Source: Microcystaceae cyanobacterium (GTDB taxonomy: Bacteria > Cyanobacteriota > Cyanobacteriia > Cyanobacteriales > Microcystaceae). From it: a stretch of DNA of 33,348 nucleotides. The stretch's first letter is position 1; each line of letters opens with the position of its first letter. Below, piece after piece: positions 27,001 through 30,000 of the stretch. The position numbers were made by a program. The DNA lies in NCBI GenBank assembly GCA_041746575.1, contig JBGTGT010000090.1, positions 1 through 33,348 of the forward strand. The letters run 5' to 3'.

Positions 27001-30000
27001 CTAACAGAGGAATTGCCCAAACTAGAATACGAGGAAAGGCATAAGAAGACTCAGAAGCAGTTAGGTAAAATGCCCCATCATCTAAGGCAAATTCGGTAGC
27101 AGATTTGCGACTTCCTGACTGAATATAAGCACCGATAATTCGGCTACAACGGATTGCTGCTAAATAGGGACTACGGGCTAAATTTTGTTGAAAATTAATT
27201 AAACTTTTGCTATTCGATTGGCCAAAATCCACCGCTTGAGGAATTGAAATTTGACGAACGGCTTGACTTTCTTGTAATATTTTGATCCATTTGATCACCG
27301 TAAAAGCAAAAACAGCGCACGCTAAACCCACCGTTAAATATTGTGTAAATCCTCTTTCAAGTAGTAAGATTCCTAGATAACTCTTTTGAAAGAGGGTTAA
27401 TAATGCGTAGATTGCTAAGGTTAAACCACAGGCGATCGCAATCACTAATAAAAGGCTAACATCTAGCTTTTTTCGTTCATAATCCCCAGTATTAAAGGGT
27501 ATTTTGCTGCTAATCATAAATTTTACTGAGAAAGCATTCAAGAGTTCTAAACAGTTTAACGCAAATTGAGCCTGAAAAATAGACGAGCTTCAGAAGCGAT
27601 CATTTCTATTTTATAAAAAACACTTTCTTTTTATTCAAATAATAACTTTTTGCTCAAACTCAAATGTCATCAGACGCCCGTTAAGAAAATTGAATCTCTG
27701 AAAACAGAATATTTTACAATAAAATGTCAGTCACTATTGAATCAGATTTAAAAGAGATTATCTAAGACTTAAAGTTTAATAAAAGCACCATAATCAGCAT
27801 AGCTTCCCTTTCGTCCAAAAGTAAACGCTGAGTAAAGCAACAGTCGTTAAAGCACAAATGACATTATTTACTTGAGGATTTGGGGGAATTTAAAGGTTAG
27901 AAAAAATTATGATAGCAAACGCCAAAAGAAGCCGGAAGTTAAATGGGTGGAGAGATTCAAAAAACTTCCGAAAAACAACATTTAATTAAAAACAGGATAA
28001 AAACATCTGATGGTGTTAGTCTGACTCTGAAGATAAGGAACACCCCGATAGGTTAATTTAGCTTTAGGGGTAACAGCAACCGTCGTAGAATGTTGATAAG
28101 ATTGGCCTCGATAAGTTAAGGCAGATTGAACATTAACAAAAGCAACGGTATTAGACGGAATGTAAGCTTGTCCACGATAAGATAAGTTCATTTTGGCTGT
28201 CCTCAAATAGAGTTGTTGATTTGATTATTATTCTGAAAAATTAAAGAGAAACCCGTTAACTTTAGGAACTTAAGAAAGAACTTTAAAGAACACTTTCTTT
28301 AACCCAACGACCCATCAGACGACCTTCTTAATCTTTTTCGCAGACGTTAAATCATTGATGCGTTTCTGCTGTTTAATCATTTGGGAAAATTGTAAAACGG
28401 AGCATTCAGATTCAGATTGATGAAGAGTATCAGTATCAGAAGCAGAAGAAGGAGCTAAAAAGGCTAAAATTCGAGCAAGGGGGCAATTTGTGGTCAGATC
28501 CATGATAAAAACTCCATTTTTGATTAAAGGTTTAATGCGTTAAAGCAGTCAGAAAACGAGAGAAGGAACTAAACAGGAAGGGGACAAGATAAAGCGACTT
28601 GATGATGTTCAAACCCCATTATTGTTGCTAATTTACTCACTTCCCCCTTTCTATAGGAAACGCCACGATAAACGAGGTTCGTTTTCGGGGGAACAGCCGC
28701 AGAAGCAGAAGATTGATAAGATTGACTCCGATAGGTAAAAGATTGACGCTTAACAGCAGGGGTGTCAGAGGAAGTGTAAGCTTGTCCGCGATAGGTCAGT
28801 TGCATGGTGTTGTCTCCGTTTGTTTGTTTTCGATGCTTACAGTATCTCGGAAACTCCCAGCAGAAAAAATCCCGTTTTCGTCAGTTAATCTCAGGAAAAA
28901 TGTCAGGTTTTGTCAGGGGTTATTATTATTGGAGATGGGAGATTGAAGATTTTACCAAGCTGGTTTGATTCGGTTTTCACCTTTGAGAGCCGTACACAAC
29001 GATAGGAGATCGCCTGTTAAAGTAATAGTAGTGAGAAAGGATAAATCGTTCATCTGTATCATCACAGATGGAAGTAGGAAGAGACTCTTCCGAAGGAACG
29101 CACCTCTAATAACCCTACAAATGAGGTGAATCAATGAACAATCAAAATCTTAAAACCCAGTCATTACGTCCGATTAACCGTCAAGCCCGTTTCTTGATGA
29201 GTAATCATCGGCAAGCGCAACGGAATCGTCAATTTTCCTTATTGCAACGTGCCGCCGAAGAAATTGGACAAAAGTAATTAAAAATCATCAGAAAGGACAA
29301 ATCATTATGAATACTAGACAAGTGCATCGTGTCAGTTTGCTAAAAAATCTAGAGCGTCGTCTAGCAGTAGCCAATAAAACAGGTAATATGGCTCTAATTA
29401 AGCAATTGGAAGCAGAAAAACGTTACTACCAATAATAATTCTGAAACTGAAAGGGGTTCTCAAAACGAAAATCCCTTTTTAATTAAGAATAATTCCATCC
29501 ATAAGGAATTAACGAGTAATACGCAAGATTCTATCTCTATTCGGCGGACAAGTCCCTCTGCCATCACAATTACTGGTGGTTACATAAAGCTCCTTGTCAG
29601 GACCCATTATTACTTCTCGTAAGCGGCCTAATTCTCCTTGAAAATAAACCTCATGGCTTTGAACACGAGCAGGGTTGTTCGAATCAAAAACCACCCGATG
29701 CAAATGTCTCGCACCTAATGCGCTAATCATAAAATTTCCTTGCCATTCAGGAATAACTTCACCCGTATAAATTGCCGCTCCTCCCGGTGGAACGGCTTCT
29801 TGCCAAGTCAGGGAAGGAGTAATCATTCCTTCTTGGTCTTCGCAAGCGTAAATTGGTGGCCACCCTAAATTATCTCCAGAATTAGCCACACTGATCTCAT
29901 CGTGTCCGCTTCTGCCTAATTCGCCGCTAGGGCCATGATCGCTAATCCAAAGAGTAGAATCATTATACCAATCAAATCCTTGGGTGTTGCGAATTCCCAT

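Follow-up and report, generated by a model that had tools for sequence, protein, structure and literature searches.

Three paralogous glutamine-riboswitch units linking a short IF7-like gene to a pirA-like gene in a cyanobacterium of the Microcystaceae

The window analysed here is a 33,348-nt stretch of genomic DNA from a cyanobacterium of the family Microcystaceae. It contains a compact unit in which a type-1 glutamine riboswitch aptamer is followed on the same strand by two very short genes (Table 1). The first (short gif) encodes a protein related to the glutamine synthetase (GS) inactivating factor IF7, and the second (pirA-like) encodes a paralog of the PII-interacting protein PirA. The aptamer matches the full RF01739 model, positions 1-53, well above the gathering threshold of 35 bits (E 1.6e-9; cmscan) and is the sole Rfam match in the whole window. 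A gap of 29 nt separates it from the short gif, and a second gap of 29 nt lies between the stop codon of the short gif and the pirA-like gene.

Table 1. Features of the riboswitch/short gif/pirA-like unit and its surroundings; positions count along the window.
Feature	Position	Strand	Evidence
Conserved upstream block, putative promoter	28965..29044	+	Three-way DNA alignment of paralogous units
Type-1 glutamine riboswitch aptamer (RF01739)	29045..29104	+	cmscan, 54.5 bits
Expression platform (anti-SD/SD helix)	29101..29128	+	RNA folding, covariation across loci
Short gif, 47 aa, IF7-like	29134..29277	+	NF052599, 37 bits; hhalign
Spacer, 29 nt, SD-like AAAGGA at 29292-29297	29278..29306	+	Fold and terminator scan
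pirA-like, 42 aa, tandem-type PirA subfamily	29307..29435	+	NF050139, 56.5 bits
Terminator-like hairpin, then U run	29449..29483	+	RNA fold; kept in all three units

Six RF01739 matches were found in the genome, and three of them carry the gif/pirA tandem: those on contigs C90 (the window), C102 (56.6 bits) and C113 (50.2 bits). An earlier note on this DNA had described these three loci, each with a riboswitch, a 47-aa IF7-like gene and a PirA paralog above its family cut-off. Its loci, its spacings and its family scores (Rfam RF01739; NCBIfam NF050139) were all reproduced. The same note had named a riboswitch-less canonical IF7 on C83 and a stand-alone canonical PirA on C31; these scored 122.4 bits on the IF7A profile NF052599 and 81.7 bits on the PirA profile NF050139 respectively, and the genome scan with RF01739 placed no aptamer on either contig. 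Three further RF01739 aptamers, on C84, C105 and C29, were absent from that note.

The C102 and C113 units are diverged paralogs of the C90 unit. In a three-way alignment, homology runs from about 80 nt 5' of the aptamer to the terminator, between flanks that differ. Comparison of the paralogs shows purifying selection on both ORFs, with dS of 0.6-1.7 and dN/dS of 0.16-0.29 (0.16-0.23 for the short gif and 0.17-0.29 for the pirA-like gene). All three copies share a compensatory change in the anti-SD/SD helix and an N-terminal motif, and in the explanation preferred here they derive from one ancestral unit within the lineage. The genome contains single genes for GS (type-I), N-acetylglutamate kinase (NAGK) and PII, and a genome-wide search found no full IF17/gifB.

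The aptamers differ in a core for which the consensus is GACGGAAGUA. The window aptamer carries a C-to-U change in this otherwise invariant core and reads GAUGGAAGUA, the C113 aptamer reads GACGGCAGUA, and the C102 aptamer matches the consensus, which is kept in the other 42 of 46 stored aptamer instances. The substitutions in the C90 and C113 aptamers could weaken ligand binding.

Directly downstream, the anti-SD sequence CACCUC (29101-29106) pairs with GAGGUG (29123-29128), which contains the SD and ends 5 nt 5' of the start codon. This 6-bp hairpin is present in both the MFE and the centroid fold of the C90 leader, and an anti-SD/SD helix occurs in 33 of 33 aptamer/short-gif loci. All three copies have the CACCUC/GAGGUG helix, as against CGCCUC/GAGGCG at 28 of 30 loci of relatives; this compensatory double change is found at none of those 30 loci, one of which has a G-U variant. 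The same anti-SD mechanism has been postulated for Synechocystis gifB, and the gifB riboswitch was shown to increase IF17 synthesis after ammonium upshift (PMC6212724). Since the helix is conserved, covaries and belongs to the type proposed for Synechocystis gifB, the short gif is predicted to be under glutamine control, and all three leaders may respond to the ligand.

The likeness to the leader of gifB (sll1515) in Synechocystis sp. PCC 6803 extends to the layout: RF01739 stands directly before a GS-inactivating-factor homolog, with a tail able to pair with the RBS, and an ON response to glutamine would be expected here (Klahn et al. 2018, PMC6212724). The present unit differs in encoding a 47-aa IF7-like core without the DUF4278 of IF17, in its pirA-like second gene, in its three copies, and in the lack of gifB and of a perfect NtcA box. 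According to the same source, such aptamers stand mainly before DUF4278 genes and other genes without Pfam matches, and its Table S1 labels the downstream proteins by Pfam alone.

On the IF7A profile the short gif products score 37 bits (C90, E 3e-9), 27.5 bits (C102) and 32.2 bits (C113), all below the cut-off of 70, and the match spans only profile positions 3-34 of 66. An hhalign comparison of 23 short riboswitch-linked proteins with eight canonical IF7s gave a probability of 98.8% (E 5.5e-17) over IF7 residues 2-39. This bears out the earlier claim that the short form is homologous to IF7 and lacks its C-terminal ~25 residues. The window protein thus consists of the N-terminal IF7 core behind an 11-residue N-terminal extension. 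All 23 short forms have arginine in the columns of R19, R32 and R39, in register with R8, R21 and R28, which are invariant in the eight canonical IF7s and which, by residue number, we take to be the essential arginines of IF7. According to a review, three conserved arginines are indispensable to IF7 (PMC6316151). Homology and the three arginines together suggest that the short gif product could bind GS and, by extension, inhibit it.

The short forms therefore resemble IF7/GifA (Synechocystis Ssl1911, Anabaena IF7A) over IF7 residues 2-39, including the three arginine columns. They differ from it in the missing C-terminus, in an N-terminal extension of 11-16 residues, in scores below the cut-off and in their linkage to a riboswitch, an aptamer being present at none of six canonical IF7 loci tested. 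IF17/GifB combines an N-terminal DUF4278 with an IF7-like C-terminus, whereas the short gif lacks DUF4278 and the 47-aa protein has no Pfam DUF4278 match; same-genus relatives have an IF17 behind an aptamer. A split IF17 was considered in view of a DUF4278 ORF located upstream within the window in divergent orientation, and was dropped because no DUF4278 gene neighbours the C102 or the C113 unit. A word-indexed search with the 47-aa protein returned four proteins, two from the same genome and two from relatives at 79-81% in run assemblies.

The pirA-like products exceed the NF050139 cut-off of 50 bits on C90, on C102 (57.0 bits) and on C113 (51.9 bits). They have the HR..L...LE.RL.VA...G...L..QLEAE core of PirA (Synechocystis Ssr0692; Bolay et al. 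2021, PMC8092223) and form a separate, shorter subfamily ending in EAEK.YY, members of which coexist with canonical stand-alone PirA within the same genomes. The canonical gene lies behind its own NtcA-repressed promoter in Synechocystis and Anabaena, whereas the paralog lies 3' of the riboswitch and gif. A complex model of the PII trimer with three ADP and the 42-aa protein reached a score of 0.62, against 0.00 for the best control, with contact agreement of at least 79% between runs and a partner pLDDT of at least 81. Of 157 solved complexes 116 attain that mark, as do 2 of 215 mismatched pairs; these counts apply only roughly here because custom alignments were used and ADP was included. 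The modelled interface takes in PII residues 36-40, 51-53 and 86, at the base of the T-loop and at the position whose I86N exchange is reported to prevent binding of PirA (PMC8092223). Sequence searches of the PDB returned no chain related to either window protein, and hence no solved PirA complex that the model could echo. The model supports binding of PII by the PirA paralog, which may also take place in the cell.

The two genes are probably transcribed together. No promoter-like site was found for the pirA-like gene itself, 29 nt behind the short gif, and folding and a terminator scan found no hairpin or terminator within the spacer. Behind the second gene, the terminator-like hairpin folds at -16.4 kcal/mol (z -3.83), and none of 200 shuffles was as good; a strict consensus terminator scan of 28800-29560 reported no site and missed this hairpin. 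Folding of 29225-29330 gave a structure weaker than that of any of 200 shuffles (z +2.54), so that the spacer and the second SD are unstructured. With the second SD open and the anti-SD covering the first SD only, direct glutamine gating of the pirA-like gene is unsupported. The riboswitch would reach this gene only via transcript stability or coupling, and one hypothesis for the glutamine riboswitch is a dual mode, translational and by way of RNase E (bioRxiv 10.1101/2021.07.27.453982). The earlier proposal that one RNA sensor co-controls GS inactivation and the PII/NAGK branch thus stands in part. The covarying anti-SD/SD helix favours it for the first cistron, and the complex model favours PII binding; co-control of both genes would have to be indirect, the second RBS being unsequestered.

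The upstream block common to the three units contains a -10-like TAAAGT/TAATAG at 29018-29028, a putative promoter element. An imperfect NtcA-like box, GTACACAACGATAG, lies at 28992-29005, and a remnant ATTCGGTTTTCACC in the block corresponds to a box GTACGGTTTTCTAC seen in other families. The alignment of the paralogs and a GTA-N8-TAC scan of the regions 5' of 33 aptamers agree that no perfect NtcA box, only imperfect ones, stands 5' of the three units, as the earlier note had stated.

The survey of the unit's distribution covered 88 genomes of the family and, at the level of the order, 30 + 11 loci. Among the matches listed for the 88 family relatives, a same-strand gif/pirA tandem occurs once per genome in at least 18 relatives of five genera, and three tandems occur in the present genome only; the count rests on manual pairing of gif and pirA match positions, with 11 matches beyond those listed. 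This recount agrees with the figures given previously, and the aptamer formerly placed upstream of the short gif in relatives was present at every locus tested, 11 in one set and 20 in another. The range proved wider than that note had indicated: at least 10 further families of the order have the unit besides the Microcystaceae, for a total of 11. The tandem is present in 24 of the 29 best order-level loci outside the present genome, plus one more, and in 4 of 5 metagenome loci. Spacers between gif and pirA are often 12-40 nt, and in some relatives they span 100-230 nt, enough to accommodate internal promoters. At 4 of 11 family loci no pirA follows the short gif, and at one more a stop lies inside pirA. 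Two same-genus genomes (92% and 77% complete) lack the tandem and have aptamer-gifB instead; a check for in-situ replacement of gifB placed the flanks of their gifB on several different contigs of the present genome and found no synteny. The aptamer/short-gif/pirA unit is thus widespread in cyanobacteria. Particular to the present genome are the three copies, the absence of gifB/IF17, the degenerate NtcA boxes and the core substitutions in two of three aptamers. Among the papers listed in a literature search on glutamine riboswitches, PirA and gifA/gifB in cyanobacteria, no description of the riboswitch/gif/pirA unit was seen.

Established are the features of the sequence, the way they are conserved and covary, and the purifying selection; on this basis we consider it probable that each locus is a promoter/riboswitch/short gif/pirA-like/terminator unit acting as a nitrogen-excess brake. 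At low glutamine, the CACCUC directly 3' of the aptamer P1 helix would pair with GAGGUG of the short gif and block initiation. Binding of glutamine would pull the first C of this tail into the long-range pair of the aptamer, whereupon the helix would melt and the 47-aa protein be translated. The latter would bind and inactivate the single type-I GS through its three conserved arginines. The co-transcribed 42-aa PirA paralog would bind the single PII at the T-loop/nucleotide cleft and draw it off N-acetylglutamate kinase, damping arginine synthesis. Any effect of glutamine on the pirA-like gene would probably be indirect, exerted by way of RNase E or of mRNA stability during translation.

This last step is where the main rival reading departs. 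The riboswitch might control the short gif alone, the pirA-like gene being merely co-transcribed and translated from its own RBS irrespective of glutamine, so that regulation would be common at the promoter and not at the RNA sensor. Pairing of the anti-SD with the first SD only, and a spacer and second SD less structured than 200 of 200 shuffles, speak for this reading; the longer spacers of some relatives could contain promoters, and the 4 of 11 family loci without pirA behind the short gif point the same way. Against it, the aptamer/gif/pirA order is kept across the 11 families, often with short spacers, and untranslated leaders are typically substrates of RNase E. A dual mode of action has also been put forward as a hypothesis for this riboswitch (bioRxiv 10.1101/2021.07.27.453982). 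Control of the short gif alone is therefore rated as rather unlikely, if a serious competitor.

The two small proteins might also have diverged in function. Their targets might then be others than GS and PII, or the two might work on one another, e.g. as the parts of a two-peptide regulator. The truncation and sub-threshold score of the short gif and the distinctness of the tandem-type PirA beside canonical PirA lend themselves to such a reading, as does the fusion of DUF4278 to either module elsewhere (IF17; a 129-aa protein on C114), which suggests modular effector peptides. Against it stand the invariance of the IF7-aligned arginine columns in all 23 short forms and a PirA paralog that passes the equivalog cut-off and for which the complex model gives contacts with PII in the T-loop and at residue 86; we hold functional divergence to be distinctly improbable. 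Least credible is that the triple copy reflects faulty metagenome assembly or binning, or decaying, functionless duplicates. The assembly does consist of 134 contigs, the sequencing runs listed as containing the stretch are four, all of DNA and none of RNA, from a single study of a hot-spring metagenome, and two aptamers have core substitutions. Yet the homology of the units is sharply bounded between different flanks, and the tetranucleotide profiles of the three contigs fit the genome (r 0.987-0.997; 0.974 upward for 67 contigs >=20 kb) at a contamination of 0%. The unique compensatory change and N-terminal motif common to the three copies, and the dN/dS of both ORFs, likewise speak against artefact or decay, which we give hardly any weight.

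Beyond the nitrogen-excess brake itself, a joint reading of the observations may be offered as a speculation that we think is probably wrong. RNA-sensed glutamine would be the main or only nitrogen-status input to the GS and PII/NAGK brakes, gifB being gone and the NtcA box decayed. Triplication would have followed the re-pairing of the anti-SD, and core substitutions would then have arisen in two of the three aptamers, so that the switches would fire at different glutamine levels and the amounts of mini-IF7 and PirA2 acting on the one GS and the one PII would be graded.

To our knowledge, cyanobacterial glutamine riboswitches have so far been linked to a single output, namely the production of IF17, which inhibits GS. 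With a PirA paralog placed behind this sensor in a conserved unit, PII signalling and the synthesis of arginine would also come under direct sensing of glutamine. Two unstudied small-protein subfamilies are also defined, a mini-IF7 of roughly 45-55 aa and the tandem-type PirA, both small enough for direct testing as synthetic peptides. The triple copy, with a single GS, PII and NAGK and no gifB, would be a natural experiment on the tuning of dosage or threshold by riboswitch paralogs.

In Synechocystis, gifA and pirA share their regulation by NtcA and by the sRNA NsiR4 (Bolay et al. 2022, PMC9196836), and the present unit would be a genomic counterpart of that co-regulation. In both, one regulator would coordinate the GS brake and the PII/NAGK brake under nitrogen excess. 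The Synechocystis genes are unlinked and the sRNA acts in trans, whereas here the genes are linked behind a cis-acting metabolite sensor (PMC9196836). The type-2 glutamine riboswitch (Downstream-peptide motif) of marine picocyanobacteria belongs to another aptamer class and is associated with DUF4278-type (IF17-like) ORFs, with no pirA partner described in the portion of the source drawn on here; it resembles the present unit in preceding a very short IF-like ORF (PMC6212724).

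The glutamine riboswitch aptamer (RF01739), the 47-aa short gif gene encoding a mini-IF7 and the 42-aa pirA-like gene form a real and conserved unit that combines known parts in a new way. All coordinates, spacings and scores of the earlier note were reproduced with cmscan and NCBIfam. RF01739 is the sole Rfam family found in the window by cmscan, and Pfam returned nothing significant in either ORF. The 42-aa protein passes the cut-off of the PirA equivalog NF050139 (50 bits), and the 47-aa ORF falls under the 70-bit cut-off of the IF7A equivalog NF052599.

Features of the unit and its upstream neighbours
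Feature	Positions	Strand	Evidence
RF01739 type-1 glutamine riboswitch aptamer	29045-29104	+	cmscan 54.5 bits (gathering 35), full model
Anti-SD CACCUC	29101-29106	+	directly after P1 3' strand; complementary to GAGGUG
GAGGUG	29123-29128	+	5 nt 5' of short gif start codon
Short gif, 47-aa ORF	29134-29277	+	NF052599 37 bits, E 3e-9; 29 nt after aptamer
pirA-like, 42-aa ORF	29307-29435	+	NF050139 56.5 bits; 29 nt after first ORF
DUF4278 ORFs	28569-28805, 28033-28191	-	PF14105, 45 and 46.6 bits; divergent upstream

The riboswitch class, IF7/IF17 and PirA have all been described already, and in Synechocystis NtcA and the sRNA NsiR4 are known to coordinate gifA with pirA (PMC9196836). An earlier survey placed the aptamer mostly ahead of DUF4278 genes and, 'in some cases', ahead of genes lacking Pfam matches; its Table S1 gives only Pfam labels for the downstream proteins (Klahn et al., PMC6212724). 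The RF01739 coordinates in Table S1 for two strains adjoin the tandem coordinates of two family loci; thus, tandem-bearing genomes were probably surveyed and the pair went unnoticed. PirA homologues and N-terminally extended versions have been described without gif linkage in the accessible text of two reports (PMC8092223; PMC9196836). No description of aptamer, mini-IF7 and PirA paralog as one physical unit was found in the accessible literature on the glutamine riboswitch, gifB and PirA.

Within the family, 88 relatives were covered by pairing the hit positions listed for a short-gif profile with those listed for NF050139. Among the matches listed, 18 relatives of five genera carry one tandem each, as the earlier note had counted. 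The aptamer lies upstream at 11 of 11 short-gif loci tested vs none of six canonical IF7 loci tested, which bears out its presence before the relatives' short gif genes. The pirA gene is missing after short gif in four of these 11 loci and carries a stop in one further locus. In genus g15, three small genomes (G060, G063 and G062; 2.5-3.1 Mb; loci L016, L017 and L035) keep aptamer and short gif; G060 and G063 have lost pirA and have no PirA match genome-wide, and pirA of G062 has an internal TAG. At the order level, 200 genomes were searched with a profile of the tandem-type PirA and the best 30 loci, one of them from the source genome, were taken. A short gif lies directly upstream in 24 of the 29 others, and the aptamer was present at all 20 tandem loci tested. 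With one more tandem from the extra PirA loci described below, and counting the family of the source genome, 11 families of the order carry the tandem. A search of metagenomes with the short-gif alignment gave five loci, four of which have aptamer, short gif and pirA. At a further metagenome locus (L124:1528-1989, +), two 64-aa IF7 genes of the canonical type stand directly one behind the other, with no aptamer.

CACCUC and GAGGUG form a 6-bp hairpin in the MFE fold and in the centroid fold alike. The same region was compared at 30 aptamer/short-gif loci of other genomes, and an equivalent tail/SD helix is present in all 30. CGCCUC is paired to GAGGCG in 28; the exceptions are one G-U variant (CGUCUC) and one shifted 5-bp version. 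CACCUC/GAGGUG occurs only in the three copies of the source genome, in which a tail G-to-A is matched by an SD-strand C-to-U. This double substitution is a compensatory change. The best aptamer of the same genome (C84:33750-33807, +; 60.1 bits) retains CGCCUC/GAGGCG. Of 46 stored aptamer sequences, 42 have the core motif GACGGAAGUA unchanged; the window aptamer (C to U) and that of C113 (A to C), with two entries each, account for the remaining four. In Synechocystis, the gifB aptamer binds glutamine, gifB expression rises after ammonium upshift, aptamer mutation abolishes accumulation of IF17 (GifB), and ligand binding is postulated to melt a tail-RBS helix of the same kind (Klahn et al., PMC6212724). 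Homology to gifB grounds a predicted translational ON switch for short gif, and such a switch acting on mini-IF7 can be considered well supported by this analogy.

The relationship of the short gif product to IF7 held up in hhalign, where a profile of 23 riboswitch-linked short proteins matched a profile of eight canonical IF7s across residues 2-39 of IF7 (probability 98.8%, E 5.5e-17). The short form has an N-terminal extension of 11-16 residues and lacks ~25 residues at the C-terminus. Apart from the initiator Met, the columns invariant in the 23 short forms are R19, L21, R32 and R39. In the canonical set, the counterparts of these three arginines are R8, R21 and R28, also invariant; by their residue numbers they are taken to be the essential IF7 arginines. 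To bind GS, IF7 needs each of three conserved arginines, according to a review (PMC6316151). Arginines and profile homology together suggest that the 47-aa protein works like the IF7 core and is a putative GS inhibitor, although the NF052599 cut-off is missed.

Six RF01739 matches occur in the genome, a 4.2 Mb assembly of 134 contigs that is 99.78% complete with 0% contamination. The same gene pair stands behind three of them, on C90, C102 and C113, in agreement with the earlier note. The short gifs score 37, 27.5 and 32.2 bits with NF052599, and the pirA-like genes 56.5, 57.0 and 51.9 bits with NF050139 respectively. The stand-alone canonical genes were also found as claimed, both without aptamer: a 65-aa IF7 on C83 (122.4 bits) and a 56-aa PirA on C31 (81.7 bits). 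A three-way DNA alignment showed homology from ~80 nt 5' of the aptamer to the hairpin behind gene 2, with unrelated flanks, so the copies are three loci rather than strain variants of one. The three contigs fit the tetranucleotide profile of the genome with r = 0.987, 0.994 and 0.997 (all 67 contigs of at least 20 kb: r from 0.974 upward, median 0.993). Between paralogs, dS is 0.64-1.72 and dN/dS 0.16-0.29 for both ORFs, indicating that both are real coding genes under selection and that the duplications are old. The N-terminal motif SLRPINRQAR, common to all three short gifs, and the derived leader change indicate descent from one ancestral unit. No other genome has more than one tandem among the matches listed and the loci fetched. 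GS, NAGK and PII are each encoded by one gene, so the three pairs converge on the same targets, which points to dosage or threshold tuning rather than new targets.

The second proteins belong to a tandem-type PirA subfamily of ~42-55 aa, ending EAEK.YY, that lies behind short gif genes. Tandem-bearing genomes also retain a stand-alone canonical PirA. At 10 of 11 extra PirA loci from such genomes, gif gene and aptamer were both absent; the eleventh turned out to be one more tandem, from a genome new to the tally. A complex of the 42-aa protein (9-row alignment) with a trimer of the genome's only PII (25-row alignment) and three ADP was modelled. Three runs scored 0.62, 0.60 and 0.64 (best control 0.00), with contact agreement of at least 79% and partner pLDDT of at least 81. 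Of 157 solved complexes, 116 attain this mark, as do two of 215 mismatched pairs; these rates apply only roughly here, as own alignments and a ligand were used. PDB sequence searches gave no related solved chain for either protein, hence there is no solved PirA complex for the model to echo. On PII, the modelled interface takes in residues 17-26 and 103-112 from one subunit together with 36-40, 51-53 and 86 from the next; in the model, this site is the inter-subunit nucleotide cleft and T-loop base. PirA does not bind PII(I86N) (Bolay et al., PMC8092223). PII binding by the paralog is a prediction supported by the model.

The earlier note predicted that glutamine, through one RNA sensor, co-controls both genes. 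The part concerning mini-IF7 stands as a predicted translational switch, by homology to gifB, but the helix leaves the ribosome-binding site of gene 2 untouched. The spacer and gene 2 start fold worse than 200 of 200 shuffles (z +2.54), and AAAGGA lies 9 nt 5' of the gene 2 ATG; thus, the second ribosome-binding site is open and outside the riboswitch helix. No terminator was found between the two genes, and a hairpin with a U run 3' of gene 2 (-16.4 kcal/mol, z -3.83) is kept in all three units, which makes co-transcription likely. A search of sequencing runs found this DNA in no RNA run. An RNase E-dependent site lies inside the gifB riboswitch of another organism, for which a dual-acting switch was hypothesized (Hoffmann et al., bioRxiv 10.1101/2021.07.27.453982). 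By analogy, glutamine could reach gene 2 via transcript stability. Glutamine control of the pirA-like gene is the weak point of the prediction.

With three copies and no gifB, the source genome is unusual. A 138-aa same-genus IF17 query matched nothing but the canonical IF7 and DUF4278 ORFs standing by themselves, and an IF7 motif is joined to none of the 14 DUF4278 matches in the genome. By contrast, the two same-genus genomes, which are 92% and 77% complete, carry gifB behind an aptamer and, among the matches listed, lack the tandem. Outside the genome, the nearest short gif (L091, 61% identical) belongs to another family; a metagenome locus (L120) has a 65%-identical one, and two relatives at 79-81% occur in run assemblies. 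These matches make a horizontal origin of the unit possible. In other families, GTACGGTTTTCTAC stands 67-70 nt before the aptamer; it is a perfect NtcA-type box in two loci and a near-perfect one in several more. The homologous sequence here is ATTCGGTTTTCACC or worse, and only imperfect boxes were found, e.g. GTA-N8-TAG at 28992-29005; the earlier note had likewise seen no perfect box.

The other three aptamers precede different genes. The C84 aptamer is followed, 93-302 nt from its start, by a 69-aa ORF of no known family with the motif FDFSLWAKAVKKQMV.SL.RRN, kept behind an aptamer in both same-genus genomes (L038 and L039). The C105 aptamer (4077-4149, -; 50 bits) lies before a ~71-79-aa predicted membrane protein, a pairing kept in two same-genus genomes and one other family genus (L044, L045 and L046). 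The sixth-ranked aptamer (C29:43569-43659, +; 48 bits) has a long P2 insert and precedes a hydroxyisourate hydrolase/transthyretin-family ORF (~150-735 nt from the aptamer start; TIGR02962, 111.6 bits). In that position, the riboswitch would be tied to a gene of purine/urate catabolism, a link absent from the accessible text of Klahn 2018 (PMC6212724). Three IF7-motif ORFs have no aptamer: a 39-aa ORF (C73:74293-74412, -; NF052599 48.5 bits), a 77-aa ORF with two IF7-like repeats (C85:42439-42672, -; 26.8 bits, two stretches) and a weak 47-aa match (C113:55134-55277, +; 14.9 bits).

DUF4278, the N-terminal domain of IF17, neighbours the window unit only; the other two units are without it. In a 129-aa protein (C114:795-1184, +), an N-terminal DUF4278 (68.7 bits) is followed by a PirA-like stretch at the C-terminus (40.6 bits), a layout that parallels IF17, in which DUF4278 is joined to an IF7-like segment. 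Similar 141-aa ORFs lie 0.5-0.7 kb 3' of the tandem in L015/L080 and L034/L079, and in genus g18 a DUF4278-PirA-like fusion gene is found just downstream of the tandem.
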